DNA from: an uncultured Acidimicrobiia bacterium
GTDB lineage: Bacteria > Acidobacteriota > Terriglobia > Versatilivoradales > Versatilivoraceae
Assembly (NCBI GenBank): GCA_963786955.1
Contig: CAWBAT010000005.1
Location: forward strand, 1,695,375-1,759,374
Reading direction: 5' to 3'
DNA: 64,000 nt
Part shown: positions 2,613-45,622 of the stretch, piece after piece
Layout of the letters: the number at the start of each line of letters is the position of its first letter
Numbering within the stretch: position 1 is the stretch's first letter
Position numbers and translations under genes: made by a program
Notes under the pieces: model-generated
Database searches by the model: none
Told to the model about the DNA's origin: nothing
Seen by the model: only the letters and a program-made list of their open reading frames with translations

Positions 2613-4652
2613 TTAAAACTGCTTCAATAGTGGAAAGACTGTGATCCGCAATTTCGCCGATCCATAGGGAATCAGAGTAAGAATCTCAACCGGTTCCAGG
2701 CTACTCGCAGGGCTCTGCGGGAGCAGTCCTGCGGACCCATTGACTTCTGCCCATTCCATGATTCGGCGTCCCTTCAGGCGTAATTGAATAGGTGCCCCTT
2801 CGGACGTGAATGGGGATAACCCGACTGGCTTTAGGTTCGTTTCAATAGAGTCTTCTGGATGATCGACGTCCAGAATTAACCCGTAATTCCACGGTGTGGT
2901 GGGATGAACTTCCCAATCTTTGGCCGGAACCGAAGCAGGTCTGCGCATACCTTTTTCAATCTTCCGCCAGTCTTCGCCTACCTTCAAAGAGAAGACCAGC
3001 GGCCCCTTTTCAACTGCTATCGAATCCCTGTACCAGCGGGAAGTTCTCGCGTGCAGTGGGAATTCTAAGACGACCTTGTCACCCTTGTTCCACTGCCGAT
3101 CAATCCTATGGAATGAACCAGGCTTGAGACCTTGCAACGGTTTCCCATTCAGAAAGACCTTTGGTTCTGAAACCCATTCGGGGATTCGTAAAGATAGCGG
3201 GAAATTCACAGGCTTTGCGGGTGTGAGCCCCAGATGGATAGTCCCGCGAAATGGATAATCGGTCTCTTCGATGATGTGAAGGCGTACGCCATCCTTTACG
3301 ATGGTATTCACTTCACAGGGGCCGTAGCTCACGGCTGCCACTCCGTCGTCCGGCGTGGCCATCCAGAGGCTGGCTAAAAACTTAGGCCAGCCTTGGTGCA
3401 TATTGGCTGTACAGCAACCGAAGTTGGGCTCGAGACCGAAAACATTGGCTTCCGGCCCATTGGTTGTCCAGTCTCGCTGCCGGATATCGCAACGGATTTG
3501 ATTGGGCTGTTGATCATATTGATGTGCCCACATGTCGCCTGAAAAAGTTGCCGGCATTGCGTTGAAGGCAATTCTCTCGAGACGGTCTCCCAACCTAGGA
3601 TCTCCTAGGAGGCCAATCAGGTGCTCCAGAGAAAACATGGATTCCACGACGCTGCAAAGCTCGTTGCCCTGTGTAGGATTAGGCCCGGCGTAGTGTTCAT
3701 CGGCACTGTGCATGCCGTGTGGAAGTAGATGATAACTGTCCAATTCCCCCAACATGCGGTAGATAGCCTCTCGATCGGAGGATTCATGTGAGACCAGCCA
3801 CCAGACCGCAGCGGTCTTCATGGCCATGGCATTGTTCACTCCGTGGGCTCGCAGAGCCAGGTCCGTCAAGCCGCCGCCGGGTCTCAGCCCAAGTTGCTCG
3901 TTACTCGTTTTGGCTACGAATTCAAAATGTTCGAACTGTTTCTTCCAGTCATACCCCTGGTCATGCAACTGTCTTGCCAGGCCAAGGAGTTGTTTGTTGC
4001 CGGTGCGGTTGTATAGCCAGAGGACGCTTAGAAGTTCATCCGCCCAGCGATAGACAGCCCACTCCTTCAAGGGGTGTTGTTGAAGCTGATTCGTTTGATA
4101 GAAGAAATATCGTTCCATTAAGGGGATGACCCTTGGATCACCCGTTGCTTCCTGATATTGCGTGAGCACCTTAAGCATGATCATGTTGGGCCACCAGTCT
4201 TGATTCTTCTCAGGACCTATAGATCCGTCAGGCCTCTGGTGGGTTAACGTCCAATTCACCCACTTATTCGCTTTGGCAATCAGCTTTGGGTCATCGAGAA
4301 GATAAGCCAAAGGCACAAGCCCATCCATGTAATACGGGCCTCGTTCCCAACTTTCACCTGTTCCTCCCAACCAGCCGTTGTCTTCCATGAGGTCAGGCCA
4401 GAACTCGTCCAAATGGCCTGTGAGCCCGGAGGCTTGGGTTTCCAGTTGGTGCCGGAGCCAGCCTCTGGGCTTCACTGAAGTCAAGGGTAATAAATAAAAA
4501 GTGGCGCCTGCCAATTCAGGCCGGTTTCTCACAACGTGCAATCGTGCTGGCACAGGAACAGTTTCCGCACTTCTCCCGTATCCGTTTTGCAGTGAAACAG
4601 CTGTGGCATTGGCGAGAAAACAAATAGCCAGAAGTTGAGCTTTTATTTTCAT
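2613..4652 (-). CDS. Beta-L-arabinofuranosidase-like glycoside hydrolase (GH127/GH146 family), secreted
   Basis: Signal peptide; GWLRHQL, WERGPY, HGVNNA, ELCSVVE, GCCTANMHQGWPK (Zn-Cys motif), ETDYPF, GPLVFSL. Confidence 0.85.
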   Translation of the reverse strand: MKIKAQLLAICFLANATAVSLQNGYGRSAETVPVPARLHVVRNRPELAGATFYLLPLTSVKPRGWLRHQLETQASGLTGHLDEFWPDLMEDNGWLGGTGESWERGPYYMDGLVPLAYLLDDPKLIAKANKWVNWTLTHQRPDGSIGPEKNQDWWPNMIMLKVLTQYQEATGDPRVIPLMERYFFYQTNQLQQHPLKEWAVYRWADELLSVLWLYNRTGNKQLLGLARQLHDQGYDWKKQFEHFEFVAKTSNEQLGLRPGGGLTDLALRAHGVNNAMAMKTAAVWWLVSHESSDREAIYRMLGELDSYHLLPHGMHSADEHYAGPNPTQGNELCSVVESMFSLEHLIGLLGDPRLGDRLERIAFNAMPATFSGDMWAHQYDQQPNQIRCDIRQRDWTTNGPEANVFGLEPNFGCCTANMHQGWPKFLASLWMATPDDGVAAVSYGPCEVNTIVKDGVRLHIIEETDYPFRGTIHLGLTPAKPVNFPLSLRIPEWVSEPKVFLNGKPLQGLKPGSFHRIDRQWNKGDKVVLEFPLHARTSRWYRDSIAVEKGPLVFSLKVGEDWRKIEKGMRRPASVPAKDWEVHPTTPWNYGLILDVDHPEDSIETNLKPVGLSPFTSEGAPIQLRLKGRRIMEWAEVNGSAGLLPQSPASSLEPVEILTLIPYGSAKLRITVFPLLKQF

Positions 4653-4730
4653 AATGAGAACCGACTCGAGAAGATCGCTGCCTGAATTGTTCCTCAGCAG
4701 TTTTTGCGCAGCACAGGATCGGGTTTCCCC

Positions 4731-6842
4731 TCACCTCAAGCGCTCGGTAAAAGCTGAGCTGCCGCCATGCAGATGGCAACTGCTCAAGTCGCATGACCGG
4801 GCTGTGCGCAGTGCCAACGCGCCACTCGGGCACGCCTCGGCGCAGCGCCGCCCCACTTCGCGAAGCCCCTCAGAGAGCGGCTTGCTGAACGGCACCGCAA
4901 CCGTTACATCGAAGCCGCGTCCGATCATGCTGACGCCGAGGGCCTCTCCGGCATTGGCCGCAATGCGCACGCAGGCGTCGCACAGGATGCACTTGCCCGG
5001 CTCATAGATGATCTCCGGGTGGGAGAGGTCCTGTGAGAACCGGCGGCGGGCGCCGGCAAAGTGGTACACATCGACGTTGTTTTGGGTTGCCAGAATGCGA
5101 ACCTTGCAGCAGTCCGCTTTGCGGCAACCGCAGGTCAGGCAACGCCGGGCCTCCCGTTGGGCGTCCGCTTCAGGCAATCCGTTCAAGACCTCGTCGAAGC
5201 TCGCCAGCCGGCGCTCGCTGTCGATCTCAGGCATGCGCACTCGCGCCGTCCTCTCGATTGCCCGGAAGATAACGGCCCGCTCGCCGTCATCGACCGGCCG
5301 CATTGCGATATCTCTCATCGCGGGTTCCCCCGTCACCCCTTCGCCTTTCAGGAACTGGTCGATCGATGCTGCGGCGATTCGTCCCGCGGCAACCGCGCGA
5401 ACGGCGAGGTCCGCTCCAAGCACCGCATCCCCACCGGCAAAGATTCCGGGCAGGTTCGTGGCCAGCGTTTTTTCATCAGCAGCGATCCCCCAACCGGTCA
5501 CCTGCAACCCTTCGTGCTCTGCAACCGAGCGTTCCACCGCTTGGCCGATGGCGGCGATCACGGTCGAGCACTCGACGTAGAACTCGGAACCATCCACTGG
5601 TACTGGCCGCCTCCGGCCCGACTCGTCCGGTTCGCCCAACTGCATCCGCTGGCAGGTCAGCAACAGCCGATGGTTCCCATTGCGTTCGAGTCGCGTCGGC
5701 ACCACCAGGAACTTGATGGAGACGCCTTCGGCTTCGGCTGCTTCGACCTCCTCCATCAAACAGGGCATCTCAGGCCTCGTCCGCCGATAGAGGATCTTCA
5801 CCGCTTGCGTATCCAGTCGAACGGCCGAGCGGGCGCAGTCCAGCGCAGTATTGCCCCCACCGACAACGATGACATCCTCGCCGAGAGACGGCGGGTTGCC
5901 CTTTGCGACCAGCTCGAGAAACTCGACCCCGGAGAGCGCGAGTTCCTCGCCCTCGCAGCGGAGTCCCTGGGCCTGTTGTGCTCCGATGGCGAGAAAAACC
6001 GCATCGTGGCTTTTCCGCAGCTCGGCTAGCGTGAAGTGCTCGCCCCAGCGCATACCCATGCGAAACTCGGCGCCAAGTTTCCGAATGACCTGGATCTCGG
6101 CATCGAGCGCATCTTTGGGCAGCCGGTACGCTGGAATGCCGTACCGCAGCATCCCGCCCGGAGCCGCCGCCGCGTCGAAGAGCGTGCAAGCATGCCCTTT
6201 CTGCCGCAGGAAATATGATGCTGACAGTCCCGCGGGACCAGCGCCGATGATGGCGACCGACTTGCCCGTTGCCGGTGCGCACAGCGGGACATAGGGATCG
6301 GCGGAGCGCCAGTCCAGATCGGCTGCGTAGCGGTGCAGAGCGCCGATCGCCAAGCCCTGGTCGAGTTGCGAACGACGGCACTCCTGCTCGCACAATCGCG
6401 GGCAGACCCGCCCCAGGGCACCGGGCAGCGCGAGCCGGTTAGTAATGACCTCCATCGAGCGCCGGTTGTCTCGCGTGGCGACCTCGTAAACGAACCCCGG
6501 AATGTCCAATCCGGCCGGACAGCGGGCCGCGCACGGGGCCACACATTCACCTGCGTGATCTGACAGCAGCAGCTCCAACGCTATTTTCCGCGCACGCCGC
6601 ACGTCTTCGCTGTCTGTTGTCGCCACCATGCCGTCGGATACGGGCAAGGCGCATGCCGGCGAGAGGGCGCGCCGGCCTTCAATTTGAACGGCGCACACAA
6701 AGCAGGATGCCACGGGTTCGAGCCCCTTTACGTGACACAGCGTCGGGATGCGAATCCCCAGCCGCTCCGCTGCCTCGAGCACGGTCGTCCCCGGTTCCAC
6801 GTGGATGCTTCGGTTATCGATGGTCAGGGCAAGCGTTCCCAC
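4731..6842 (-). CDS. Fe-S flavoprotein: N-terminal [2Fe-2S] (NuoG/HydA-like) + GltD/NfnB-like FAD/NADPH domain + C-terminal 2x[4Fe-4S] (BfuA/SfrB-like)
   Basis: IPTLCH..SCFVCAV..PAC; APCAARCP; GRVCPRLCEQEC; IIGAGPAG; VGGGNTALD; YRR; FAGGD; RCLTCGC; KCILCDAC..CAEACPSGAL. Confidence 0.85.
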   Translation of the reverse strand: MGTLALTIDNRSIHVEPGTTVLEAAERLGIRIPTLCHVKGLEPVASCFVCAVQIEGRRALSPACALPVSDGMVATTDSEDVRRARKIALELLLSDHAGECVAPCAARCPAGLDIPGFVYEVATRDNRRSMEVITNRLALPGALGRVCPRLCEQECRRSQLDQGLAIGALHRYAADLDWRSADPYVPLCAPATGKSVAIIGAGPAGLSASYFLRQKGHACTLFDAAAAPGGMLRYGIPAYRLPKDALDAEIQVIRKLGAEFRMGMRWGEHFTLAELRKSHDAVFLAIGAQQAQGLRCEGEELALSGVEFLELVAKGNPPSLGEDVIVVGGGNTALDCARSAVRLDTQAVKILYRRTRPEMPCLMEEVEAAEAEGVSIKFLVVPTRLERNGNHRLLLTCQRMQLGEPDESGRRRPVPVDGSEFYVECSTVIAAIGQAVERSVAEHEGLQVTGWGIAADEKTLATNLPGIFAGGDAVLGADLAVRAVAAGRIAAASIDQFLKGEGVTGEPAMRDIAMRPVDDGERAVIFRAIERTARVRMPEIDSERRLASFDEVLNGLPEADAQREARRCLTCGCRKADCCKVRILATQNNVDVYHFAGARRRFSQDLSHPEIIYEPGKCILCDACVRIAANAGEALGVSMIGRGFDVTVAVPFSKPLSEGLREVGRRCAEACPSGALALRTARSCDLSSCHLHGGSSAFTERLR

Positions 6843-8684
6843 CTAAATCACCTCGATGGCATTGTCCTGGCAGGCCTGGAAACACATGTCGCAACGGGTG
6901 CAGAGGTTTCCGTCGATCTCGTGCTTTTCGTACGGGCGAAACTCAATCGCGCCAACCGGGCAGACCTGGGCGCACAAGGTGCAGCCAATACAATTGTCTT
7001 TCACGCGGTATTGAATCAGGGCCGGGCAGCGTCCGGCCGGGCAGCGCTTTTCGTGCAGGTGCGCCTCGTATTCCTCGCGGAAGTACCGCAATGTTGTCGC
7101 CACCGGGTTGGGCGCTGTCTGGCCCAGCCCGCACAGGCTGCCACGGCTGACATAGTCGGCCAGCGTTTCCAGTTTTTCCAGATCGTCCCTCCGGCCGTTC
7201 CCCTCACAGAGTCGCTCGAGAATCTCAAGCATCCGTTTGGTGCCGATCCGGCAGAACGTACACTTGCCACACGACTCGGCCTGTGTGAACTTTAGGAAGA
7301 AGCGGGCCATGTCGACCATGCAGTCACGCTCATCAAGCACCACCAAACCGCCGGAGCCCATGATCACCCCCGTCTTGGCCAACGCGTCGTAATCGATTGG
7401 CGTGTCCGCCAATCGAGCCGGGATGCATCCTCCCGACGGTCCCCCGATCTGGACGGCTTTGAACGTGCGGCCGTTTTTGATGCCGCCCCCGATCTCTTCT
7501 ACAATCTCCCGGACGGTGACGCCCATCGGCACCTCGATCAGGCCGCCGTGGTTGATCTTGCCGGCCAGTGAGAAGACCTTCGTGCCCTTGCTGCTCCCGG
7601 TGCCGAGGGCGGCGAACGCTTCTGGGCCGTTGCGAAGGATCCATGGCACGCATGCCAGGGTCTCAACATTGTTGATGAGGGTTGGCTGGCCACGGAAGCC
7701 CCGCTCGGCAGGATAGGGCGGGCGCAGCCTCGGCATCCCGCGCTGGCCTTCGAGCGAGAGGATCAACGCGGTTTCTTCACCACAGACGAAAGCGCCGGCT
7801 CCCTCCCGGACTTCAAGGCGGAGCGAGAATTGCGAACCCAGAATGCGTTCGCCCAGGTAGCCTCTTTGTTCCGCCTGTTGGATCGCCGACCGGATGCGCT
7901 GTACGGCGAGGGGGTATTCCGCACGGATGTAGAAATAACCTTCCGCGGCCCCAATCGCGTGAGCTGCGATCATCAGTCCCTCGATCACGCGGTGTGGATC
8001 CGCTTCCAGCACCAGCCGGTCCATGAACGCGCCCGGATCGCCCTCATCGGCGTTGCAGATGACGTATTTGGTTTTTCCGCTCTGCGCCCGGGTGACCGAC
8101 CATTTTCGCCCCGTGGGGAACCCCGCGCCGCCGCGACCTCGAAGGCCGGAATTCGTGATCGCGGCAATCACCTTTTCCGGAGCCGATTCTTTCAGGCAGG
8201 TCGCCAGTGCCTGATATCCATCCCGGGCGATGTAATCGTCGATCTTCAGTGGATCGATCTCACCGCAGTTCTCGAGGACAATGCGCTTCTGTTTTCCGAG
8301 ATACGCCGCCGCAGCGCCCGTGCTGCGGTCGAACCGGAACTCCTCCAAGTGCGGTCGGTCGCTGTCCGGCGCGACCCATCCCGCGACCCTCTCGGCCTGC
8401 CAGCGTGCCCACGCGCGAAGCCGGAGGGGGCGGAGGTGCTTCCTAGCAATCTGACGGGCCGTCCCGGGTGTCACGTTGCCATAGAGCGTGGTGCGGCCAT
8501 CCGGCCCAACGACTTCCACCAGCGGCTCGCGATGACACATCCCGTTGCAGCCGACTGTCTTGACCACGCCATTCGCGCCGGCTTGTCGGGCCTCCTGCAT
8601 CAGGACCGCGCGAACCGGCTCACTGCCGCTGGCGACCCCGCAGGAGCCGAGACCGATCCGGATCTCGACGGCGCCCCGTCTCAT
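6843..8684 (-). CDS. NuoF/HydB/BfuB-like FMN/NADH-binding Fe-S subunit
   Basis: N-terminal SCGVASG..GCNGMC [2Fe-2S]; GRGGAGFPTG; CNADEGDPGAFMDR; GAFVCGEETAL; GGPSGG; SCGKCTFCR; HEKRCPAGRC; two C-terminal ferredoxin motifs; ATG 8684 overlaps the upstream stop (ATGA). Confidence 0.93.
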   Translation of the reverse strand: MRRGAVEIRIGLGSCGVASGSEPVRAVLMQEARQAGANGVVKTVGCNGMCHREPLVEVVGPDGRTTLYGNVTPGTARQIARKHLRPLRLRAWARWQAERVAGWVAPDSDRPHLEEFRFDRSTGAAAAYLGKQKRIVLENCGEIDPLKIDDYIARDGYQALATCLKESAPEKVIAAITNSGLRGRGGAGFPTGRKWSVTRAQSGKTKYVICNADEGDPGAFMDRLVLEADPHRVIEGLMIAAHAIGAAEGYFYIRAEYPLAVQRIRSAIQQAEQRGYLGERILGSQFSLRLEVREGAGAFVCGEETALILSLEGQRGMPRLRPPYPAERGFRGQPTLINNVETLACVPWILRNGPEAFAALGTGSSKGTKVFSLAGKINHGGLIEVPMGVTVREIVEEIGGGIKNGRTFKAVQIGGPSGGCIPARLADTPIDYDALAKTGVIMGSGGLVVLDERDCMVDMARFFLKFTQAESCGKCTFCRIGTKRMLEILERLCEGNGRRDDLEKLETLADYVSRGSLCGLGQTAPNPVATTLRYFREEYEAHLHEKRCPAGRCPALIQYRVKDNCIGCTLCAQVCPVGAIEFRPYEKHEIDGNLCTRCDMCFQACQDNAIEVI

Positions 8685-9577
8685 ACGAGCTCCTTTTGCT
8701 CGACAATGTCCAGCGCTGCGCAGGCACTCGCCGGGGTGAGGTTCCCAGCGGTATGGTCGTCGACCATGAGGACCGGCGCCAGGCTGCAGCACCCCAGGCA
8801 CGCCACCTCGTCTACGGTGAACATCCTTTCCGGATCGGTATCGGCGTCTTCCGGAATCCGAAGTTGGCGGCGCAGTTCCTCTCCGATCTGTCGTGCTCCC
8901 GACACATGACAAGCCGTCCCATGGCAGACGCGGACGATGTGTCGGCCAACCGGCGACCGGCGGAACCGTGCATAGAAAGACGAGGTCCCCGCAATCTGTG
9001 CGGGTGTCACTTCCGTCAGCTCGCAGACACGCGCAAGAGCTTCATCCGGCAGGTAGCGATAGAACGCTTGGATAGCTTGGAGAATCAGGATGGCCGATTC
9101 CTTGCTCCTGCCCTCTTTTTCTACGATTCTGTCCACGAAGGTCAGGTCGATCTCGCCCGAGGCGGAAGCGCCGGAGAAAGGCCTCGCCACTGCGGCGGGC
9201 CCTCGGGCCGGTGGCGCTTCCAGTTGGACCAGCTTGCTCATCGTGACGGGACGACGGCCATCCAGCGCGATCCGCCATTTCGAACTCGCAACGAATGCCG
9301 ACGCCGCGAGAATCAGCAGAATCGAGATCCAGCCGCTCCTTACCTTGCGCGTGCGCCGGGCTCGCGTGACGCCATCCTGTAGGGCGGCGAGCTGCGGCGC
9401 GAACGACGAGTCGTTCTGAGCCTGTTTCTGCAGGGCCACGATGCGCGCGTCATCCTTGGGCGCCCGCAGGCGGGCAGCCACGTAGTCCGCGATCAAAACC
9501 AGGACGCACACCGCTACGAAGAACCCAGCGATTTTGGCCGCGGTCAGCGCCAAAGATCTCTGCCCGTTCGTGGTCAT
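8681..9577 (-). CDS. NuoE/HydC/BfuC-like [2Fe-2S] subunit with an N-terminal two-transmembrane extension
   Basis: VCHGTACHV and CLGCCSLAPV motifs; hydrophobic segments IAGFFVAVCVLVLIADYV and GWISILLILAASAFVA; ATGA overlap at 9574-9577. Confidence 0.88.
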   Translation of the reverse strand: MTTNGQRSLALTAAKIAGFFVAVCVLVLIADYVAARLRAPKDDARIVALQKQAQNDSSFAPQLAALQDGVTRARRTRKVRSGWISILLILAASAFVASSKWRIALDGRRPVTMSKLVQLEAPPARGPAAVARPFSGASASGEIDLTFVDRIVEKEGRSKESAILILQAIQAFYRYLPDEALARVCELTEVTPAQIAGTSSFYARFRRSPVGRHIVRVCHGTACHVSGARQIGEELRRQLRIPEDADTDPERMFTVDEVACLGCCSLAPVLMVDDHTAGNLTPASACAALDIVEQKELV

Positions 9578-10539
9578 ATCGCGGCTCCAGACTTCGTCTC
9601 GCGAGGGCATGCGGCGTAGCACCGCGCACAGTAAAAGCACTCTTTACGTACAGCCCGCATCTTCTCGATCGCACCGTACGGGCAGGCTTCCGCGCACAGC
9701 CCGCAGTCCAGCTCTGTGCTCGGGGTGATGGTGACGCCGCGTTTTGCCAGTCGAGTACACCAGGAGAGCAAGCCGCCGTACGGGCACAAGTAACGGCAAT
9801 AGGGCCGCCCCACAAACATGCCCAGCACCAAAAATCCTCCGCCGATCAGCATCATGTGAGCGAAGCCTTCTCTGCGGAAGAACCCCACGAACGGGTCGAA
9901 CCGGCAAATGACGAAGTCACGTGAAATGGCAGGCTTCACAGCGAGGAGAATGGCCAGCGCAAGATAAACGTACTTCAACAAACCTAGCGCGTTGTCCAGC
10001 CGGCGCGGCACCTGAACCGGCTTCAGGACAACCAATTCCTGTATTGCGCCCAGCGGGCAGACACCTCCGCAGAAAGCGCGGCCGAAAAACAGTGCCACCA
10101 ATAACGGCAGGAAGAAGATCGCCGTGACAACAATAGGAATCGAGTATCCCGGATCGGCGAGCGCCACCGCGACGTTCTGTATGGAGCCGATCGGGCAGAT
10201 GCAGCCCTCCCGGTAGAATCCGAAATAGGCCAGGCAGGCGACCGTCAGCGCCAGCACCCACTTCCGGCTGCGCTGGGACAGAACCAGCCACACGGAGATC
10301 CCCATGGCGGCCGCCAGCAGTACGACGTCCAAGACCTGCAGCCAGTATTGCCGCGGCTGCGGCTTTTGGACCTCCGGGGTGACGTAGCCGCCCCCGATGG
10401 CTTCTGGTTGGGGGGCCGTTTCGACGGGACGCTCATAATGCATGGCCTGCCCCGGTGCCTTGCTGGCCAAGGTGAGGCCCAGCAGGACTAACGCCAGCAG
10501 TACCACTACGGAACGCCACGTTAACTTGATCGATTTCAT
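9574..10539 (-). CDS. Membrane 4Fe-4S binding protein (NapH/MauN/RdxA-like)
   Basis: Multiple hydrophobic helices; CICPIG, GRAFCGGVCPLG, RPYCRYLCPYG (CxxxCP) and C-terminal CGLCAEACP, CFYCARCYAACP. Confidence 0.88.
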   Translation of the reverse strand: MKSIKLTWRSVVVLLALVLLGLTLASKAPGQAMHYERPVETAPQPEAIGGGYVTPEVQKPQPRQYWLQVLDVVLLAAAMGISVWLVLSQRSRKWVLALTVACLAYFGFYREGCICPIGSIQNVAVALADPGYSIPIVVTAIFFLPLLVALFFGRAFCGGVCPLGAIQELVVLKPVQVPRRLDNALGLLKYVYLALAILLAVKPAISRDFVICRFDPFVGFFRREGFAHMMLIGGGFLVLGMFVGRPYCRYLCPYGGLLSWCTRLAKRGVTITPSTELDCGLCAEACPYGAIEKMRAVRKECFYCARCYAACPRETKSGAAI

Positions 10540-11156
10540 GTTACTGGCTTCGCCGCCCCCCCGATCTCGAGAGCCTCTTTCACCTGCTCCTGCGCGATCG
10601 CGTCTTTTGGACATGCACTGGCGATGGCGCAGCGGTTGCAGTCGACGCAGAGGTTGTAGCGTACCTTCAGCACGATGGATCCGAGTCCCAGGGGTTCCTT
10701 GCAGCCCTTGACGCATATCCCGCAGCCGTCGCATTTCTCTTCGTCAATGATGTATTCGTAGAAGTTGTTGGCCGGGTCCTCGGGATCGATCAGGCCGATC
10801 GGTTTGCGCTCGATCGCGTCCCGCGGGCAAAGCTTCTCACTCGGCAGGCCCTTCTCGTCCACTGCGCTCTTGATGTTGTAGTAGGCGGGACAAATGTAGC
10901 AGCGGCCGCACTTGGAGAAGTTATTCACCGCCCGAACGGCGGACTGCGACACGACGCACTCGCTCGTGCATAGGGTGCACACTTGGGCGCCCACCTCGCC
11001 GAGCCGGCTGTTGACGCACTTAGCCGCGTCAACCTGCCAGACGATCTGCCCGTTCGCCTTTTTAACCAGGTAGCCGGCACCGCCGGCAAACCCGAGAAGA
11101 ACGGTGCCGCGAACCACCTTGCCCAATGCGTCCCGTCTGGTAATCTCTTCGCTCAT
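10536..11156 (-). CDS. Cys-rich ferredoxin with Tat-like N-terminus (in frame with the upstream NHL ORF)
   Basis: MSEEITRRDALG..hydrophobic stretch; CTLCTSEC, CGRCYICP, CDGCGICVKGC, CVDCNRC..ACP. Confidence 0.75.
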   Translation of the reverse strand: MSEEITRRDALGKVVRGTVLLGFAGGAGYLVKKANGQIVWQVDAAKCVNSRLGEVGAQVCTLCTSECVVSQSAVRAVNNFSKCGRCYICPAYYNIKSAVDEKGLPSEKLCPRDAIERKPIGLIDPEDPANNFYEYIIDEEKCDGCGICVKGCKEPLGLGSIVLKVRYNLCVDCNRCAIASACPKDAIAQEQVKEALEIGGAAKPVT

Positions 11157-11984
11157 GGTCTGTGCGTCTTCTTCAAAAGCGAGGATCTCGAGCCTCACGG
11201 TGTCGGCGACATAGACCCGGCCGCGGGTGTCCACCGCGATATCCATGTTCTTGCAGTTGGGGTCGAACACGACCGTCGCAATCACCGAAAGCAGCTTCCC
11301 TTGGGAATCATAGACCTTCGCGCGCGGCTCGGCCTTCTCCGTGACATAGATGCGGTTGCGGCCGACGACGGTCACATTCGTCGGATTGCAGCAGCCTGAA
11401 AACCCCGACGGATCCAGCCCGTCGAAGCGGCCGATATGCCCCAGCAAATGGTCCTCCGGTGTGTAGCGCTCCACGCGGTGCTTGCCGGGATTCGCGGCGT
11501 GGATGATACCGTCGGCATCCACACTGAAATCCAGGACGCCGTTCGGGATCAGGAACCCCTGCATCCGGTTGTTCTTGCCGATATTGTTGAGAAACTTCCC
11601 GCCTGTCTCATAACGGCGTATCGCACGGTCATTGGCGTCACCTATCAACACGCTGCTTCCGAGAAACCCGATCGCCGTCACGCGCCCGAGCCGCTCAGCG
11701 TCGCTCCACCTGTCCGCCAGGCGACCCTCGCCGTCGAAGATTTCCACCTGGCCCGCCTGGCCCACATACACCGAACCGTCGGCCGCAACCGCCACCGCAT
11801 ATCCCGGTTTGGAGGTGGGCCAACGCCGCTGGACCCTCCCGTCGGGGTCGAAGATCTTTAACTCTGAATCTCCGACGGCGTACAGGCGATTCCGCCCGTC
11901 CACGGCGATACTGCGTAATGTCTGGACGAAGCGATCGGAGGCGTCTCCCTTCCCGCTGATGACTTGAACTTGCTTGTACTTCAT
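11157..11984 (-). CDS. NHL-repeat beta-propeller protein with GCCNP motif
   Basis: Repeats IAVDGRNRLYA, VAVAADGSVYVG, FSVDADGIIHAA, IAVDTRGRVYVAD; SGFSGCCNPTN. Confidence 0.8.
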
Positions 11985-11994
11985 AACAGCCTCC

Positions 11995-13254
11995 TTACTT
12001 GCCTCGCACGTCCAGGCACACCATTTTTGTCAGGTCCCGCAGGATGAGCTTGCCGTCCGACAGGGCCATTGGTCCCCAGACATCCGGGCCGCTGAGCACC
12101 TGGGCGCTGGCGAGTTCCTTGTACGCGGTCGTGTTCGCCTCCACCAGCCGGAGCATTCCGGTCTTGCCATCGAGAACAAAGAACATTCCGTCGGCCAGCA
12201 GGAAACTTCCCAGGTCAAAAGAGGCCTTACCGTCGCTTGTCCAGACCTCCTTGCCGTCCAGGCTCAAGCAGGTGAACAAACCTCTTCGCTTCTTTCCAAC
12301 GGCGAACAGGTGACCTTTGTACACAATGGGCGTGTGGACTTCGGAGTTCCACTCGTTGTTCTTCATGTCGAACACGCTCTCGGCATGGAAGCTGCCGCCG
12401 TTCGATTGCACCCGGACCATGACACTGCCGGCGTCATAGCTGGCGGTCATGAAAACACACTGTCCGTCGACCGCCAAAGGCGAAGGTGCAACGGCCACGT
12501 TGAACTTTCGCGGGTATTCCCACAACAGTTTTCCGTCCTTGGCCGATACCCCGAGTGGGCCGTTCAGCGTGCCCCAGAGATACTGCTTGACGCCTCCAAG
12601 AACGGCCGGCATGACCGAGGCATGCGAGAGCACCAATTTACCCGGGTTGGGAGTCCGCCAGATTTCCTTGCCCGTGGCTTTGTCGAGGGCGACCATGATT
12701 GCATCCCCGCCGGTGGCGATGATAATCCGATCCTCCTCCATTAAGGGGTTCTGGCCGTTGTACCAGGGGGGGATCACGGTCTTGTATTCGGTGACCAGGT
12801 TCTTGGCCCAAAGCTGCTTCCCGGTCCTTGCGTCCAGGCAATGGAGCCCGAATTTTGGGTCAATCGAAAAGACGTACCTGCCATCCACCGCTGGCACAGT
12901 GCGTGTAATGGCGTGGTTGGGGCGAATAACACGGGCCTCTCTGTAGCTCCAAATCACCTTACCCGTAGTCAGGAACCGGCAATGAACGCCCCACTCGTTT
13001 TTAGCCTCATCATAATCGTTATGGTAGACGCGGCCTCCCACGATCGCCGCGCCCGCGTAACCTTGGGCGACCGGAATGGTCCACAACACCTTTGGCCCAC
13101 TTGTAGGCCATTGGTGTAGCAAGCCCATCTCTTTGGATATGTTGTCTCGGGCAGGCCCACGGAACTGCGGCCAGTCCGCCCCCTGAACTGCCGGCATAAG
13201 AGCGGCGATCGCCACGCAGCTGAGACTGATGCGCCAGGTTCGCCATGTGGGCAT
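11995..13254 (-). CDS. Secreted PQQ-like (BamB-family) beta-propeller protein
   Basis: GAGGAG RBS; signal peptide followed by ADWPQFRGP; repeated LDxxTGKxxW blades. Confidence 0.88.
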   Translation of the reverse strand: MPTWRTWRISLSCVAIAALMPAVQGADWPQFRGPARDNISKEMGLLHQWPTSGPKVLWTIPVAQGYAGAAIVGGRVYHNDYDEAKNEWGVHCRFLTTGKVIWSYREARVIRPNHAITRTVPAVDGRYVFSIDPKFGLHCLDARTGKQLWAKNLVTEYKTVIPPWYNGQNPLMEEDRIIIATGGDAIMVALDKATGKEIWRTPNPGKLVLSHASVMPAVLGGVKQYLWGTLNGPLGVSAKDGKLLWEYPRKFNVAVAPSPLAVDGQCVFMTASYDAGSVMVRVQSNGGSFHAESVFDMKNNEWNSEVHTPIVYKGHLFAVGKKRRGLFTCLSLDGKEVWTSDGKASFDLGSFLLADGMFFVLDGKTGMLRLVEANTTAYKELASAQVLSGPDVWGPMALSDGKLILRDLTKMVCLDVRGK

Positions 13255-13573: not shown

Positions 13574-14606
13574 TCACGGCTTCAGGATTACCTTCATGAG
13601 GTTGGGCTCCTGGCGATAGAGCCGGTCGAACCACGCTGGCCCTTCGGCCAGCGGAACTACTGCCGTGATGAGCGACTCAACCTTGATCACGCCTTTTGAC
13701 ATCAGATTGATACAAACGGGATACTCACCGCTCGACGCACAGGAACCCTGCAGGCGGATCTGCTTTGTCACTACCACTTGCAGCGGTAAGTCGATGGATG
13801 GTGCCAGGTTGCCGACCAGTGTGACGGCGCCGCCCTTGCGAACACTCTGAATCAAGACCTGGATTGGATCGGTCGTGCCCACGCACTCGATAGCCACATC
13901 CGCTCCGCGGCCGTCCGTCAGCTCACGAATCCTCTCGGCCGGGTCGCCTGTCTTCGAGTTGAGGACATCCGTGGCACCCAGCTTGAGCGCGCGCTCGAGC
14001 TTGGCGTCATCCAGATCGAAAGCGATCACACGCGGGCAACCAGCGGCTCGTAGGGCCTGGATCGTGAGTAAACCAATCATCCCGGCGCCGGCTACGACGC
14101 CCGTATCTCCCAACTGAACAGGCGTAATCCGCACGGCGTGGACCGCCACGGAAACGGCCTCAATGAGTGCGGCGTGCTCAAATTGGAAATGGTCCGGAAG
14201 CCGATACACGATGCGGCGGGGAACCGACACAAACTCGGCAAAAGCGCCGTGGCGGCGATAACTTCCCGGCGAAACGCCCAACACCTCGCGGTTGTCACAG
14301 AGATTCAATTCGCCCCGGATGCAATAGATAGCAGTGCCCACAGTAAACGGTAGAGTCGAAAGTAACGCGGTCGCCTTCCTGAAGGTCATGCACGTTCGTG
14401 CCGGTCTTCGCAATTTGACCGGCGGCTTCATGTCCCATGACGATCGGCGGGACTCGCCGCCCGGTTCGACCGTCCATCCCATGAACGTCGCTTCCGCAGA
14501 TACCGCACGCCTTCACGCGCACCAACACGTCGTCGGGGCCAATGCCCGGGATCGGCATCTCGACTACTTCCAACTTCATGTATTCTTTAAGCAGAAGCGC
14601 ATTCAT
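13574..14606 (-). CDS. Zinc-dependent alcohol/polyol dehydrogenase (MDR family; frameshifted near 14300-14390)
   Basis: CGICGSDVH, GHEAAG, YCGHC, GAGMIG, ECVG motifs across ORFs 14295-14630 and 13574-14482. Confidence 0.9.
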
Positions 14607-14739
14607 CGTTTCGAAGTGAACTTCCCGCACTTATTTTTCTTCAGGAAACCGTCTGTGTCCAAGAACTCGAAGTGACCCGAAAGCCATGCCGCCACGGAAT
14701 GGGTTGCCAAAATTCTTCTATAAATCCGGACTCATAATG

Positions 14740-15984
14740 TCATTTTCCTTTGGGATTCTCAACTGCCTCGGCGGAGACTTCTGATTTGTAATCCCGCCAG
14801 AGCCAGCGCAGCGAATCTGGCAAAATTGCCCGACCGTGCAGGTTGTTGTGATACCCCTTGCCCATGACGAACCTGTAGTCATAGCCCGCAAATTTGAGGG
14901 CTCGATCCATTTGCTGGTTGGCTAGCGGCCAGTTGCCGTGCACGTTGTCGAGATCGTTCTCTCCATCTTGAAGAAAGACGCGGATCGCTTTCTTGGGTGT
15001 TTTGCGGATGAGAGCAGGGTAATTGTGGCCGCCTTCGCGTAACGTAGCGCCGCTGGCGACGTTGGCGAAGCTTCCAACCCAACTCAGCACTTTGCTAAAC
15101 TCGTCGGGGCGTTCCCAGGCCACCGTGAAGGCGCAAATACCCCCACTGCTGATCCCGCCTATGGCTCGGCCGGCCGCATCGTGGCGCAGTTTTACAGTCT
15201 TTTCCGTTTCCGGTAGAATCTCAGCCAAGATGAATCGGGCATACTGGTCTGAAAGTGTGTCGTACTCGAAATTGCGGTTAGATCGTCCGTCTTTAAGAAC
15301 ACCCGGAGCAACGAAGATACCCACCATTACAGGGATCTCCCCTTTCGCGATCAGATTATCGAAAACTATCGGAACGAAGTCTTTGTAGCCCTTCCCATCC
15401 TGAAACACCATGACACAGGCCGGATTCTCCGGCTGGTACTGGGCTGGCACGTAGAGCCACCATTCTCGAGTAGTCCCTTCGAAGATCCGGCTGCTCCACT
15501 GGGGCATCTCAGTCACCTTACCTTTTGGGACTCCTGGTTTCTCGAGGCTGTCCGGATCCGGCTTATAAATCTCTAGCGGAGCGCTTGCAATTCGTTTGCC
15601 GCCAACCTCATAGTGAAAAAGCTGCACGGTCTGGTCCGGGAAGGCGACCACTGCAGCATACACGCCTGTAGAACCAACCGGCGTTAGCTTAAACGCCTTT
15701 CGGCCGTCGTCTGAAACCACTCGTGGAGCAGCAGCACCACCACTGACTTCAATAGCCCAGGCTGCCAGCTTACCTTCTACTTTGGGTGCGGGTCCCTTTT
15801 GCAGTTTTTCTTTGCCGCCAAAGGACTGACGGATCTGTTCAGCCAGTTGCTCAGCGTGAGTTCCCGTTGGTTTGGCTTTCAAAGCTGCCCGTAATGACTC
15901 AGGCGTGAGTGACGTTGCAGACTGACCAATCGAAGACAATGGAATCGCGAGAATCAGAGCGAAACCACCCCAGAATCGTTTCAT
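14740..15984 (-). CDS. Secreted alpha/beta-hydrolase, enterochelin esterase-like
   Basis: Signal peptide; YVPAQY, VFQDG, GISSGG nucleophile motif, QDGENDLDN..GNW. Confidence 0.85.
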   Translation of the reverse strand: MKRFWGGFALILAIPLSSIGQSATSLTPESLRAALKAKPTGTHAEQLAEQIRQSFGGKEKLQKGPAPKVEGKLAAWAIEVSGGAAAPRVVSDDGRKAFKLTPVGSTGVYAAVVAFPDQTVQLFHYEVGGKRIASAPLEIYKPDPDSLEKPGVPKGKVTEMPQWSSRIFEGTTREWWLYVPAQYQPENPACVMVFQDGKGYKDFVPIVFDNLIAKGEIPVMVGIFVAPGVLKDGRSNRNFEYDTLSDQYARFILAEILPETEKTVKLRHDAAGRAIGGISSGGICAFTVAWERPDEFSKVLSWVGSFANVASGATLREGGHNYPALIRKTPKKAIRVFLQDGENDLDNVHGNWPLANQQMDRALKFAGYDYRFVMGKGYHNNLHGRAILPDSLRWLWRDYKSEVSAEAVENPKGK

Positions 15985-16187
15985 TAAATTCTCCGCGGCA
16001 TCGAGTTTAATCACGGTGCTTCCGCGATCCATTGTTCGTAGGGCGATTGTAGCTCATTTAAGGGTTCGGATTTGAGACTCAATTTTAGCCTATTCAGGCG
16101 CCCCAACAGCACGGTGCAAAGCCATGCTCTCCTGAACCAGATCCTGCCGCCTTCTCCAGGCTGCATTTCTCACCACGAATTGGATTT

Positions 16188-16289
16188 CCTGGGAGCGCAG
16201 GCTTCCAGCCTGCATCTTCGTCGAATTTGACCCAATCCACGAAGGACAGCGGGAAGGGACAGAGCCGGCAAGATGCCGGCGGTCCCAGG
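16188..16289. repeat. REP-like inverted pair (CCTGGGA-type hairpins)
   Basis: CCTGGGAGCGCAGGCTTCCAGCCTGC at 16188-16213 and an inverted relative GCCGGCAAGATGCCGGCGGTCCCAGG at 16264-16289; exact reverse complement of the first at 31802-31827. Confidence 0.7.
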
Positions 16290-16607
16290 GGTTGCCAGCT
16301 TTCCCGGTGCGCCGGTGAGAAACCCGGACTAGGCTGCAACCATCAATATTCCTAGCCATCGAAGTGTCCCAATCACGGGCAGTCGTGTGGAGGGGAGGCT
16401 AAATAATCAATCAATGGTTTTCAAGCCGATGAAATTATAGCCGGAAACTGGTAATTAAAGGTCGGTTTAAGGTCAGGATCGATTGGAAGAATTTCTGACC
16501 GAAAGTCAGAAGTTGAAGGGTAAGAGAAACTCCATCTTTCGACGGAGTTTCGTCTTGTCAAATGGAAAGAGCAAGAGGCTCGAGGAAAATGATGAATGCC
16601 AGACTGG

Positions 16608-17204
16608 CTACAGCTTAAACTTTACCACCGGCCCGCTGGTTTTTTTCACCTTGAGTCTGACGGTCACGTCAACATGGTCGGAAATTTTGACAAAGGGAAT
16701 GCCCTTGTTCATCCCGAAGTCCTTACGGTTGAAGCTCATTGTCCCATTAATCGTGCCTTGGCCTGACCCCTTCTTCCCTTCAAGTGTTAACGTGAGCGTC
16801 TCGGTTTTAGTCACACCGCGTATCGTAAAGTCGCCGGTCAACACAATGGTGTTGGGACCGGTCTGTTCAGACTTCTTAGAAACAAATGTGATCAACGGAT
16901 CCTGTTCGGCGTTGAAGAAGTCTTTGCCTTTCAATTTGCCGTCCTTCATGCCACTTCCGGTATTCACGCTGTCTGCTTGAATCTTGAGGGTCAAAACTCC
17001 TGTTTCCACATCAGGAGATGTGAATGTAAGCGTGGAGTCCCACTTGGCGAAGGTCCCTTTTATAGACACTGACGCATCCACAAAGAACGTAACTGAGCTG
17101 CTTTCCGGCGTAACCATGAAAACAGGAGCCTCTGCTCGGGTTACTGACGGGAGCACGGCGGACGTTAAAAAACAACAGATGATAATAGTTAATGTTTTTC
17201 TCAT
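16608..17204 (-). CDS. YceI-family lipid/polyisoprenoid-binding protein
   Basis: Signal peptide; SVNTG..D.KLKGKDFFNA, LTGDFTIRGVTK, NRKDFGM. Confidence 0.9.
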   Translation of the reverse strand: MRKTLTIIICCFLTSAVLPSVTRAEAPVFMVTPESSSVTFFVDASVSIKGTFAKWDSTLTFTSPDVETGVLTLKIQADSVNTGSGMKDGKLKGKDFFNAEQDPLITFVSKKSEQTGPNTIVLTGDFTIRGVTKTETLTLTLEGKKGSGQGTINGTMSFNRKDFGMNKGIPFVKISDHVDVTVRLKVKKTSGPVVKFKL

Positions 17205-17348
17205 GGCGAATAATTTTACTTATCCTCGCTTCATTGTCAACCAGAAATTGCATTTATTTATTGTAATGCGTTAGTTATGGGGGGAAATCCCTAAGGGCAA
17301 GACCTTCGGTGACGATTTGAGATTGTCGCTTCTGTAGCGGCTGAGTGG

Positions 17349-17400
17349 GTAGGGACGGACCGCCGGGCCGTCCGCGGCGCGCTCGGCGAGCGCGCCCTAC
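17349..17400. repeat. GTAG-type REP doublet
   Basis: GTAGGGACGGACCGCCGGGCCGTCC followed by inverted GGCGCGCTCGGCGAGCGCGCCCTAC. Confidence 0.7.
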
Positions 17401-17519
17401 CAGAAATTCCCCCGATAACTAACGCATAACCATTTATTCCTTATCGATAGGGCTTCAAATCGAAAGGTGACTGAATATTTTTCTCTCGCTTCCGCAAGAA
17501 AGTGGCTGATTGGATCGTT

Positions 17520-20500
17520 TCATCCCAGCAGCAACTCCAGGTCTTCGCGCCGCAGGTTACGAATCAGGCTGCTATCTTCGTTTAGGATCGCATCGGCCAA
17601 CTGCCGCTTGTTCTTTTGCAGTTCCAGGACTTTTTCTTCGACAGTATCCCGGGCGATCAGACGATATGCGAAAACCCGGCGGGGCTGGCCGATCCGGTGT
17701 GTCCGGTCGATTGCCTGAGCCTCCACCGCGGGATTCCACCAGGGGTCAAGTAAGTAGACATATTCGGCTGCTGTGAGATTAAGCCCCAACCCCCCTGCCT
17801 TAAGACTGATGAGAAACAACTTGCATTCAGAATCCTTTTGGAATCGTTCGACTTTGGCTGCCCGATCTCGAGTCTTTCCGTCCAGATATTCGTAAGGGAC
17901 ACGGTCCCCATCCAGCCGCTCGCGCACGATGGAGAGAAAACTGGTGAACTGAGAAAAGACAAGCGCTTTGTGCCCCTCATCGATAACCTCGTTGAGTTGT
18001 GGAATTAGGATCTCCAACTTGGCGCTCGTTTCATCTCTCCGTGACTTGTCGACCAGGCCCGGATGGCATGCTGCCTGACGCAGACGGAGCAACGCTTCCA
18101 AGATAAGGATCTTGGCTTTTTGAATCCCGTCTCGCTCAACTCGCGCTAAGAGTGAATGGCGATAATAGTCGCGCAGCTCGTCATAGAGTTTCCGTTGGTG
18201 GGACTCCAGTTCACAGAACAGCGTCTGCTCCAACTTTTCGGGGAGGTCTTTGGCCACCTGCCCCTTGGTGCGACGCAGGATGAAGGGTTTCAGGGCCTTG
18301 CTTAAGAGGGCTCGAGTTTCCAGGTCAGGGTTTCGTGCGCCGTTGTCGGTAAACTTAAACACCGAAGACGTTCCCAGTAACCCAGGGTTGAGAAATTCAA
18401 ACAGACTCCAGAGTTCTCCCAAGTGGTTTTCGATGGGCGTCCCACTCACTGCCAGTCGATGCTGTCCGCGCAATAATCGCGCAGCCTTAGCGGACTCGGT
18501 GCTGGCGTTCTTGATGGCTTGGGCCTCATCCAGGATGATGTAGTCGAACAAGACATCCTTCAAATGAAGCACATCCCGCCGCAGCGTGCCGTAGGTTGTG
18601 ATCACCACGTCATACGAGTCAAAGGAACTCCCATCGGAAGTGCGCCCCGTGCCGGTGTGGTCCAAGATCCGAAGGTTGGGGGTGAAGCGGGCTGCTTCCT
18701 GCTTCCAGTTAAAGACAAGAGATCGCGGCACAACCAAAAGCGAAGGACGAACCTTTTCACCTGAGTCCCGGCGATTGGCCCGCCGCGATTCTAACGCGGC
18801 CAGCACCTGCACCGTCTTGCCTAGCCCCATATCATCAGCCAGACAACCGCCAAAACCGAATCTTTCGAGAAAGTGCAGCCATCCGACTCCCTCGCTCTGA
18901 TAGTGGCGCAATTTCCCTTTGAATCCATCGGGAGGATCAACCGGCTCTATGCCTTCGAATCGCTGCAGCTCATCACGGGCTCGGGCAAAAACCGTGTCAA
19001 AGGTGGCCTCCGGCAAGCTGGCTAGCAAGGCATCCAGAAAGCCAACTTGGGCGCGACTGAACTGGACGTGATCATCGCGCGCCGCTCCTACTGAGGCGAG
19101 AATGTCTAATTTCTTTAGCATTTCTTCTGGCAGCAGACCAAAAGTCCCGTCATCCAGACGGACGATGTTTTCTCCCCGCTTCAATGCAGCCAGCAGGGAG
19201 GGTAACCTAACGGTCTGAGTTCCAAAATTCAGCTCTCCATTGAGTTCAAACCAATCGATGCCCGAAGTGACCGAGATGTTGAATGCTCCTGCCTGCCGAT
19301 AGAGTTTGCCTTCTGCCTCAACGTGCCAGCCCGCACTGACCAGTTTCCTCACTGCCCCTGGTAACTTCGCGGGAGCCAGTTCCAACTCGGGTTGGCCGCC
19401 GTAGGAAGAGTTAGGCAGGCGAAATCCTTGTTGAGTCAGGCATTCCAAGGCAGAATATTCGGCGTCTGAATCGCGTAGTATCAGGCATCGGCGCGCAGTG
19501 TGAAAAATTCCCCGCCCCGGCTGGTGATAAGAAACCTTGGCCCCGTCGTAGTTGAATTCCAGGCTGGCTCGCAGTCGGGCGGGACCCCATTGTTTTGGCT
19601 GCGGCATACGCACTCGCAAATGGGGTTGCGGCTTCACCCAAATCTCTTCGATCCTCCACTCTTCAGGCAAATCCAGTCGCGGACACTGGGGCAACTGAAT
19701 CAGCTCCTTGAAGAATTCGTCCTTCTGGACCACGGGGACCATAAAGGAGCCGATTTGCCGAAGAAGGGCAATCCAGGCAAAGGCGCCGCAATCATCTAAC
19801 TTGGCTACCTCTTTCAAATTGAATACCAGCCCGCCAGCCAACAGCAATGCTGGCTCAGACAGGTTTTGTCTTTCTCCGCCACGCTTCAAGAACCCTCGAA
19901 TCAGGATTTGTTGAACGTTTGATTTATCAATGTCACACTGAAGTCCGAACTCCCAGGCAGGCCCGTCGTCCCATTCCAGCGGCGCCGCTTCCAAAGTCTG
20001 AGGCGCAAGACGCAGGAAGCACCGTTTCCTTTCACAAATCTTCGGAAGGATGGTCTGTTGTAACAGTTGCGAAAGCCGATATCGGCAAGGGGAGCTTCCA
20101 TAGCCATAAGAATGGCCACTATCCCACTCATTCCTAGCGCCCTGCAACAGCGTCAAAATCTCCCGATCCATCGGGTCTGGCAACTGAGGGACAAGTCTTG
20201 GGGAAATCCCATAAGACTTAGGCTTACCCCAGTCTCCATTCATCTTTCGCTCCCGGTAGAGCACTTCCAGGATGAGCTCTCCCTGGATTTTGCTTGTTGG
20301 GACATCGATAACATACAGGAGTTCTCTGCCCGCAGGACACACTGCGGAGGACCCGTCGTAGCTTGGGCCCATAGCCTGAAGGAGGCTGCTCAACTGGCTT
20401 TTCCAAACTGGAGGCTTGGCTGGCTTTGGCTTTAATGTGGTGGGTTCTGATCTCAGTGAGGGCTTGGGTGAGTCAAACCCAGCAACCTTGTACGGAAGGA

Positions 20501-45575: not shown

Positions 45576-45622
45576 CGAGAATACTCCTGAAAAGTCCGGT
45601 GATTCCGGCCTCGGCGGGATGG

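Follow-up and report, generated by a model that had tools for sequence, protein, structure and literature searches.

An Acidobacteriota and Planctomycetota gene cluster combining an Nfn-Bfu-type flavoprotein with a NapH-like iron-sulfur protein and secreted beta-propellers

A stretch of 64,000 nucleotides from an uncultured bacterium that GTDB places in the Acidobacteriota (assembly GCA_963786955.1, contig CAWBAT010000005.1, positions 1,695,375 to 1,759,374), hereafter the window, carries on its minus strand a cluster of six tightly packed open reading frames (ORFs) that runs from window position 13254 to 4731, ~8.5 kb in all. The cluster encodes two beta-propellers, a ferredoxin with a twin-arginine (Tat) signal, a NapH-like membrane protein, and three subunits of a flavoprotein related to the Nfn-Bfu enzymes. 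We propose, with a probability of roughly 45%, that these parts form one membrane-spanning system in which a heme-free iron-sulfur conduit of NapH/NapG type carries electrons from NAD(P)H to a double propeller in the periplasm. The proposal starts from features read directly from the sequences: domain make-up, conserved gene order, the Tat motif, a signal peptide, anchor helices, and gene fusions. Each module is of a known kind, and it is their combination that is new, the novel elements being a tethered and shortened Nfn core, a NapGH-like pair for which no terminal enzyme is known, and the double propeller. Full-text literature searches returned no description of a cluster with this composition, in keeping with the initial annotation of the locus, which had named no characterized enzyme of this kind.

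A conserved seven-part gene cluster

The initial annotation described seven coding units. All seven expected protein families are present (Pfam and NCBIfam) and all five junctions that it listed are exact, but the number of ORFs is six, because no stop codon separates the NHL propeller from the ferredoxin. On the minus strand, neighboring genes overlap as ATGA at 10536-10539, 9574-9577, and 8681-8684, a TAG directly abuts a GTG at 6843/6842, and between the PQQ_2 and NHL genes a TAA is followed by a 10-base spacer containing GGAGG (11985-11994) and then by an ATG.

Related loci were collected by a scan of one genome per species with alignment of relatives of the NHL protein, which gave 160 confirmed loci, the best 80 of which were kept. 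By their taxon labels, 62 of these belong to Acidobacteriota (including Bryobacterales, Solibacter, and Vicinamibacterales) and 14 to Planctomycetota (including Phycisphaerales and Planctomycetales), while 3 are unlabeled and 1 is assigned to Bathyarchaeia. All seven window proteins were matched in 54 of the 80 loci (tblastn, best high-scoring segment pair), and most of the others are interrupted by contig ends. We therefore also counted only loci with room, defined by at least 1.3 kb upstream and at least 6.7 kb downstream of the NHL gene (n = 50), and required a coverage of at least 0.8. The initial annotation had set beforehand that its reading would be refuted if the propeller and NapH-like genes did not co-occur with the NuoE/NuoF/GltD trio in other genomes; they do co-occur, with all seven parts present in 44 of the 50. 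Gene order and strand are kept in 80/80 loci. Synteny of this extent indicates that the grouping is more than chance. Identities of the window proteins to their relatives are 55-83%, even across phyla, and the close packing recurs: with start calls being approximate, the NapH-like gene overlaps the NuoE-like gene by 4 bases in 47/61 loci and the NuoE-like gene overlaps the NuoF-like gene by 4 bases in 44/48. The family is also abundant in metagenomes: each of the top 120 database clusters for the NHL protein reaches at least 394 bits.

The exceptions differ in kind. One is a second copy within a metagenome-assembled genome, in which the NuoF gene is frameshifted and the GltD gene is missing (L009); two yield partial matches (L054 and L059); and in another (L073) the PQQ_2-NHL pair is followed by EPSP synthase and other unrelated genes. 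The remaining two concern the flavoprotein itself. The A subunit of L080 has 526 amino acids, and in the Phycisphaerales locus L037 the NuoE and NuoF parts are fused into a protein of 934 amino acids that is followed only by a [2Fe-2S] protein of 157 amino acids. The expectation of a conserved seven-part set thus holds for most loci, but the GltD part is not universal. NuoE-like and NuoF-like parts share one frame in 5 loci in all (L010, L037, L058, L072, and L080), four of them labeled Planctomycetota and one Solibacteraceae.

A FastTree phylogeny of concatenated PQQ_2, NHL, ferredoxin, and NapH-like proteins from 64 loci and the window, from which L072, L078, and L080 were excluded as fused or frameshifted, sets a mainly Planctomycetota group apart from a large Acidobacteriota group, its clades carrying no statistics. 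The former group also contains three loci labeled Acidobacteriota and one unlabeled locus, and the window is placed inside the latter. A contig labeled Candidatus Bathyarchaeia archaeon (L065) holds a complete cluster of bacterial type; since it groups with the Acidobacteriota loci in this tree, its archaeal label is probably a binning error.

The cytoplasmic module and the putative membrane conduit

The three downstream genes encode the parts that the initial annotation had likened to Bfu and Nfn enzymes, and the solved NfnABC/Stn enzymes indeed proved to be their closest sequence relatives in the PDB. The NfnA-like A subunit (4731-6842, 703 amino acids; Pfam Fer2_4, Fer4_20, Pyr_redox_2, and Fer4_Nqo3) consists of an N-terminal [2Fe-2S] domain, a GltD/NfnL-type FAD-NADPH domain with iron-sulfur clusters, and a NuoG-type ferredoxin-like region. 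Its residues 5-676 align to residues 5-671 of the 1178-residue NfnA of Caldicellulosiruptor saccharolyticus (9bov_A, 1e-172), with further PDB matches to Sporomusa ovata 8oh5_C and archaeal 9n5u_A. The NuoF/BfuB-like B subunit (6843-8684, 613 amino acids) contains an FMN-binding core (Complex1_51K, 162 bits) and an NADH_4Fe-4S domain (117 bits), preceded by an N-terminal thioredoxin-like domain and followed by a C-terminal 2x[4Fe-4S] domain (Fer4 at residues 562-608) that is conserved in the relatives. Its best PDB matches are NfnB/StnB proteins (8oh5_B at 1e-225, 9bov_B, and, over residues 8-612, 9n5u_B), which rank ahead of HydB proteins and far ahead of NuoF from complex I. The NuoE/BfuC-like C subunit (8681-9577, 298 amino acids) is a thioredoxin-like [2Fe-2S] protein (2Fe-2S_thioredx, PF01257, 137 bits), whose residues 141-289 match NfnC (9bov_C, 4e-38).

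Comparison of this trio to the NfnABC/StnABC structures from C. saccharolyticus (9bov/9bp5), S. ovata (8oh5), and an archaeon (9n5u) reveals a common core and some clear differences. All three subunit types are shared, as are the FMN/NADH site, the two-cluster domain at the C-terminus of B, the [2Fe-2S] domain of C, and, in A, the [2Fe-2S] and NfnL/GltD FAD domains. According to the available parts of the paper on the C. saccharolyticus enzyme, NfnA is made up of three domains (N-terminal, NfnL-like, and Fdh/NuoG-like), and electrons travel from FAD through the clusters of the A subunit to [B1-FMN-C1]; from there they reach ferredoxin by way of clusters B3/B4 at the C-terminus of NfnB, the C-terminal 2x[4Fe-4S] domain of BfuB being the ferredoxin-facing branch (PMC11829005). 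The A subunit here ends at 703 amino acids, just where the Fdh/NuoG-like domain of solved NfnA begins, and the alignment stops at 671/1178 of 9bov_A; this C-terminal domain, present in all three solved NfnA proteins (963-1178 amino acids), is thus missing. The C subunit, conversely, is longer. In the window it begins with an extension of 140 amino acids bearing two hydrophobic helices (residues 16-34 and 79-97), and orthologues have extensions of 99-158 amino acids with two transmembrane-like segments in 54/63 and one in the other 9, for which the solved structures offer no counterpart. The trio also differs in that its operon includes genes for a putative membrane conduit and for secreted proteins, and in its hosts, which are mostly soil Acidobacteriota and Planctomycetota instead of fermenters and acetogens. 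By sequence, the NuoE/NuoF/GltD trio and the solved NfnABC/Stn (Nfn-Bfu) transhydrogenases are homologous, and the missing Fdh-like domain together with the helix-bearing extension identifies the trio as a predicted membrane-tethered, shortened relative of those enzymes.

Membrane-bound Bfu enzymes have been predicted before. In the portions of Schut et al. 2022 available to us, only Mbh- and Nuo-linked membrane forms are predicted for the Bfu family, and 17 BfuB clades are left unassigned (PMC9304861); the present cluster type may be one of them. These predicted Mbh-Bfu and Nuo-Bfu complexes have a BfuBC core with membrane subunits in common with the present cluster; as described there, however, they are joined to proton-pumping Mbh or complex I arms, in place of which we find a small NapH-type iron-sulfur protein and a periplasmic end station (PMC9304861).

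The NapH/NosR-type integral membrane protein (9574-10539, 321 amino acids) belongs to Fer4_5 (58 bits against a Pfam cutoff of 22). It remains under the curated cutoffs for NapH (TIGR02163, 39.4 bits against 213; PRK09477, 34.3 against 234), reaches 54 bits with the NCBIfam NosR model, far below its cutoff, and has no sequence relative among PDB structures. About 5-6 hydrophobic segments are seen in the window protein and four to six in 69/73 orthologues, the CX3CP motifs are conserved, and a ferredoxin domain with two clusters forms the C-terminus. This domain should be cytoplasmic on the basis of the positive-inside pattern and of the published NapH topology. The adjoining ferredoxin (10536-11156, 206 amino acids from its own ATG at 11156; Pfam Fer4 families) carries a twin-arginine motif, [S/T]-R-R-x-x-[LVI], in all 74 aligned rows, with the arginines invariant in 21/21. 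Its 16 invariant cysteines are enough for up to four [4Fe-4S] clusters. The h-region of its signal is weakly hydrophobic, no segment of transmembrane grade being found in 67/74, and no NapG/MauM model was among the NCBIfam matches at E ≤0.01.

In placing a 16-cysteine Tat ferredoxin beside a Fer4_5 membrane protein that has CX3CP motifs and ends in a two-cluster domain, the cluster resembles NapGH, NosGH, and MauMN. Here, however, neither conduit protein reaches curated family scores, no NapA, NosZ, or methylamine dehydrogenase was found by Pfam in the operon or in the scanned neighboring window ORFs, and a cytoplasmic NAD(P)H module is attached, which to our knowledge is not part of any NapGH, NosGH, or MauMN system. 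As the initial annotation had stated, families of hydrogenase or molybdopterin catalytic subunits are absent, with no Pfam match in the six operon ORFs and 17 neighboring window ORFs. Assignment of the cluster as a hydrogenase, formate dehydrogenase, or nitrate/N2O reductase system was rejected because the catalytic subunit that each would need is missing from operon and flanks. A broader parallel is offered by Meheust et al. 2021, in whose available text NapH-like PF12801 proteins are presented as a module for moving electrons across the membrane that is combined with extracytosolic reductases or oxidases, among them the PQQ alcohol (ethanol) oxidase ExaA, a PQQ-type propeller that such systems adjoin in 172 genomes (PMC8238504). 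Those systems share with ours a PF12801 membrane module beside an extracytosolic enzyme, but, as far as that text goes, they are defined by an ApbE-flavinylated FMN-binding domain, and no FMN-binding or ApbE family was found by Pfam in the six ORFs; the outer carrier here is instead a Tat polyferredoxin and the inner partner a Bfu-type flavoenzyme (PMC8238504).

The likeness to NapGH raises the question of quinones. The NapH-like protein and the ferredoxin could exchange electrons with the quinone pool, as has been proposed for NapGH, in which case the tethered module would be a non-pumping NAD(P)H:quinone reductase or a nearby transhydrogenase. Membership of the same Pfam family, Fer4_5, speaks for such a link; the scores far under the NapH cutoffs speak against it, as does the gene arrangement, since the 4-base overlap between the NapH-like and NuoE-like genes (47/61), taken with the membrane anchor of the NuoE-like subunit, suggests direct docking of the latter to the NapH-like protein. 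We regard a quinone-linked conduit as unlikely, and it overlaps with direct transfer from the module to the conduit rather than excluding it.

The propellers and the surroundings of the cluster

The first gene encodes a PQQ_2/BamB-type beta-propeller of eight blades (11995-13254, 419 amino acids; PQQ_2, 89 bits), with an N-terminal Sec-type signal peptide that ends just before a conserved DWPQFRGP, and with 73 orthologues at 60-82% identity. Its AlphaFold2 (AF2) model (predicted local distance difference test score, pLDDT, 82) has BamB as the best PDB fold (TM score 0.62-0.65), followed by tetrathionate hydrolase and PQQ dehydrogenases, all at TM ~0.6. H114, H211, H307, and C329 are invariant. 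The description as a secreted PQQ-like propeller in the initial annotation is borne out by the signal peptide and the family, but the protein is not a PQQ dehydrogenase: the PQQ alcohol/methanol dehydrogenase model TIGR03075 gives it 37.8 bits where 480 are required, and PDB matches of its profile to PQQ enzymes are partial, with E values of 1e-6 or weaker. Identity with BamB was also rejected (TIGR03300, 42 bits against 285; PRK11138, 34.5 against 423), the likeness being in fold only. Tetrathionate hydrolase, the best PDB sequence match of the profile (3.5e-9), was dropped as a functional lead because the alignment is generic blade-repeat similarity over part of the protein.

The NHL propeller that follows (11157-11984, ~276 amino acids; Pfam SGL/NHL) has six blades in an AF2 model of high confidence (pLDDT 91), with NHL domains of TRIM2/3 as the top folds (TM 0.83). 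Two vicinal cysteines, C198 and C199, are invariant within a G-C-C-N-P-T-N motif, and the loop that carries this motif is the only low-confidence part of the model. A protein atlas search with the NHL protein retrieved generic NHL/SGL clusters only.

The two propellers also occur as single polypeptides. At least 15 database clusters hold PQQ_2-NHL proteins of 708-819 amino acids, the five of these inspected in full each opening with a hydrophobic signal followed by DWPQFRGP, and the same fusion is found in 2/77 loci (L072 and L080). Fusion of both propellers behind one signal peptide argues that they act together outside the cytoplasm. A three-chain complex prediction of PQQ_2 (residues 26-419), ferredoxin (residues 38-206), and NHL gave scores of 0.00, 0.38, and 0.54, compared with 0.66 for a control in which chain 1 had been exchanged; it was used neither for nor against binding. 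Paralogous PQQ_2 propellers recur near the cluster as well, with 87 ORFs in 28/80 loci (including L005 and L073), mostly 1-9 kb upstream; these too begin with WPQFRGP once the signal ends, and L073 has its PQQ_2-NHL pair flanked by two of them. They may be alternative partners, and they were the only recurrent family in the search of flanking genes, which found nothing else in more than 15 loci.

How the NHL propeller is joined to the ferredoxin is a peculiarity of the window. Positions 10536-11984 form a single open frame of 482 amino acids, the first 276 residues being NHL/SGL and the remainder the ferredoxin from the internal ATG at 11156. None of the 77 related loci that hold both genes has them in a shared frame (0/77). 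In 59/77 of these loci the stop codon of the NHL gene and the start codon of the ferredoxin gene overlap, as ATGA in 57 and as GTGA in 2, and compared with this arrangement the junction in the window is displaced by one base. The NHL protein stands alone, at 273-308 amino acids, in 119 of the top 120 database clusters; the sole exception, P0052, is a frameshift-ridden fragment of 344 amino acids that runs in frame into the ferredoxin. Two other genes in the window are split as well. Directly upstream of the operon, a Zn-type alcohol dehydrogenase (13574-14630, minus strand) is divided into overlapping frames for ADH_N (14295-14630) and ADH_zinc_N (13574-14482), the cause being a frameshift or else an indel of the assembly. 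A 2-oxoacid dehydrogenase E2 gene (44399-45809, minus strand), which adjoins E1 alpha/beta genes at 45623-47591, is likewise divided into overlapping lipoyl plus E3-binding (44769-45809) and catalytic (44399-45334) frames. In view of these, an assembly indel or a recent mutation is a serious possibility for the NHL-ferredoxin junction too. Recurrence of the same in-frame junction in P0052 means that the fusion may nevertheless be real in a small lineage. A further database cluster, P0001 (275 amino acids), is identical to the window NHL protein (11160-11984) over about the first 150 residues and then diverges, a mosaic pattern that suggests recombination between strains.

The propeller pair might alternatively have nothing to do with electron transfer, being a periplasmic binding, hydrolytic, or assembly unit that merely neighbors a separate system of five iron-sulfur genes. 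L073 carries the pair alone, the fused PQQ_2-NHL forms have ordinary signal peptides and would need no cofactor insertion in the cytoplasm, and the folds match BamB and NHL scaffolds, all of which fit such a division. It is hard to reconcile with an order and strand that are the same in 80/80 loci, with seven parts kept together in 44/50 across two phyla, and with an NHL stop codon that overlaps the ferredoxin start in 59/77, and we consider two unrelated neighboring units very unlikely.

Around the cluster, the window contains carbohydrate-degradation genes and an outer membrane barrel of Acidobacteria type. G+C is 0.60-0.63 in the operon (positions 4001-12000) and 0.52-0.55 in the flanking glycoside-hydrolase genes; the higher value may reflect acquisition by transfer. 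No Rfam match and no tRNA was found in the window, and a scan of it for promoters and terminators gave signal at shuffle level. A radical SAM/SPASM protein (41112-42200, plus strand) adjoining a metallo-beta-lactamase-fold gene (39174-40085) appears unrelated to the operon. Elsewhere, the cluster of L037 is followed by a gene in which an aquaporin (MIP) and a CobW/G3E GTPase are fused (15798-17531, minus strand), and CobW-like GTPase ORFs lie upstream of the cluster in four Bryobacterales loci; these neighbors could be a link to metal delivery.

Proposed electron flow and biological meaning

The input module of the proposed system would be an Nfn-Bfu-type iron-sulfur flavoprotein composed of the GltD-like NADPH/FAD subunit, the NuoF-like NADH/FMN subunit, whose additional two-cluster domain at the C-terminus is characteristic of Bfu enzymes, and the NuoE-like [2Fe-2S] subunit, with the helices of the latter tethering it to the membrane. 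It would oxidize NAD(P)H, perhaps first bifurcating the electrons to low potential, and release them, by way of either the B3/B4 branch or the clusters at the C-terminus of the A subunit, to those clusters of the NapH-like protein that lie in the cytoplasm. The latter, with its two-cluster domain facing the cytoplasm, would pass them to the Tat-exported four-cluster ferredoxin outside, as in NapGH, NosGH, and MauMN, from which they would reach the PQQ_2 and NHL propeller pair. The end point could be the reduction of a substrate bound by this pair or of the vicinal cysteine pair of the NHL protein. We infer this path and its direction, as we do the side of the membrane that the NapH-like protein's iron-sulfur domain faces and any catalysis by the propellers.

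A more specific form of this proposal would make the cluster a third kind of membrane-associated Bfu enzyme, in which the Nfn-type module bifurcates NADPH and sends low-potential electrons through the NapH/NapG-type conduit to power a reduction by a cofactor-poor periplasmic double propeller, in largely aerobic soil and marine bacteria. We hold this bifurcating version to be doubtful.

Electrons might also run the other way, the propeller pair oxidizing a donor, and the ferredoxin and NapH-like protein feeding a Bfu-type module that reduces NAD(P)+, possibly together with cytoplasmic ferredoxin. Bfu enzymes are described as reversible in the consulted sections of Schut et al. (PMC9304861), and the text seen of Meheust et al. 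places NapH-like systems beside oxidases too, for example ExaA in its 172 genomes (PMC8238504). The propeller of PQQ_2 type would suit an oxidation as well, but it falls short of the PQQ alcohol dehydrogenase family by a wide score difference (37.8 bits against 480), its mature length is only ~394 amino acids, and a PQQ or metal-ligand signature was not found in it. Moreover, the potentials of PQQ-type substrate couples lie so far on the positive side that reducing NAD+ with them would take an input of energy. Reverse flow is therefore, in our judgment, improbable.

Several points weigh against the transfer of NAD(P)H electrons to the propellers that we propose. We know of no member of the NapH family for which passage of electrons across the bilayer by such a heme-free protein has been established. 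No redox cofactor site or signature was identified in either propeller, and the best fold matches of both, BamB and TRIM NHL domains, are non-enzymes. L073 has the PQQ_2-NHL pair without iron-sulfur genes within 10 kb. The NfnL/GltD part is cut to 526 amino acids in L080 and replaced by the 157-residue 2Fe-2S protein in L037, a variant with no NADPH domain at all, which shows that bifurcation from NADPH cannot be obligatory everywhere in this system. An NHL-ferredoxin fusion as in the window and P0052 would keep the NHL domain in the cytoplasm, ahead of a Tat signal that has become internal, and so contradicts its periplasmic placement, unless the fusion is erroneous or non-functional. Finally, the unfused NHL protein has no signal peptide in the upstream frames inspected at the 80 loci: fewer than 18 open codons lie upstream of it in 47/80, the upstream frame is non-hydrophobic in 30 of the other 33, and the three loci with a hydrophobic frame are the true PQQ_2-NHL fusions L072 and L080 and the frameshifted L078. 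Export of the unfused NHL protein is thus an assumption. The simplest route would be export in a complex with the Tat ferredoxin, whose gene overlaps the NHL stop codon and on which the NHL protein would ride.

The flavin-based bifurcating Bfu enzymes known so far are soluble and come from anaerobes, and the two membrane-bound forms exist only as predictions. Here an Nfn-type Bfu core appears to be tethered to the membrane, in hosts from two phyla that dominate soils and peat. Being compact (~8.5 kb), strongly conserved, and abundant in metagenomes, the cluster is experimentally tractable. If the proposed system is correct, neither quinones nor hemes would be needed for NAD(P)H to power reductions outside the cytoplasm, the propellers would represent a new class of periplasmic enzymes, and a physiological partner would be at hand for the puzzling clusters that NapH/NosR-type proteins carry on the cytoplasmic side. 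Should the bifurcating version hold, the cytoplasmic iron-sulfur domain of the NapH family would be a docking site for a cytoplasmic donor, which would answer the old question of why the clusters of NapH/NosR-type proteins sit inside.

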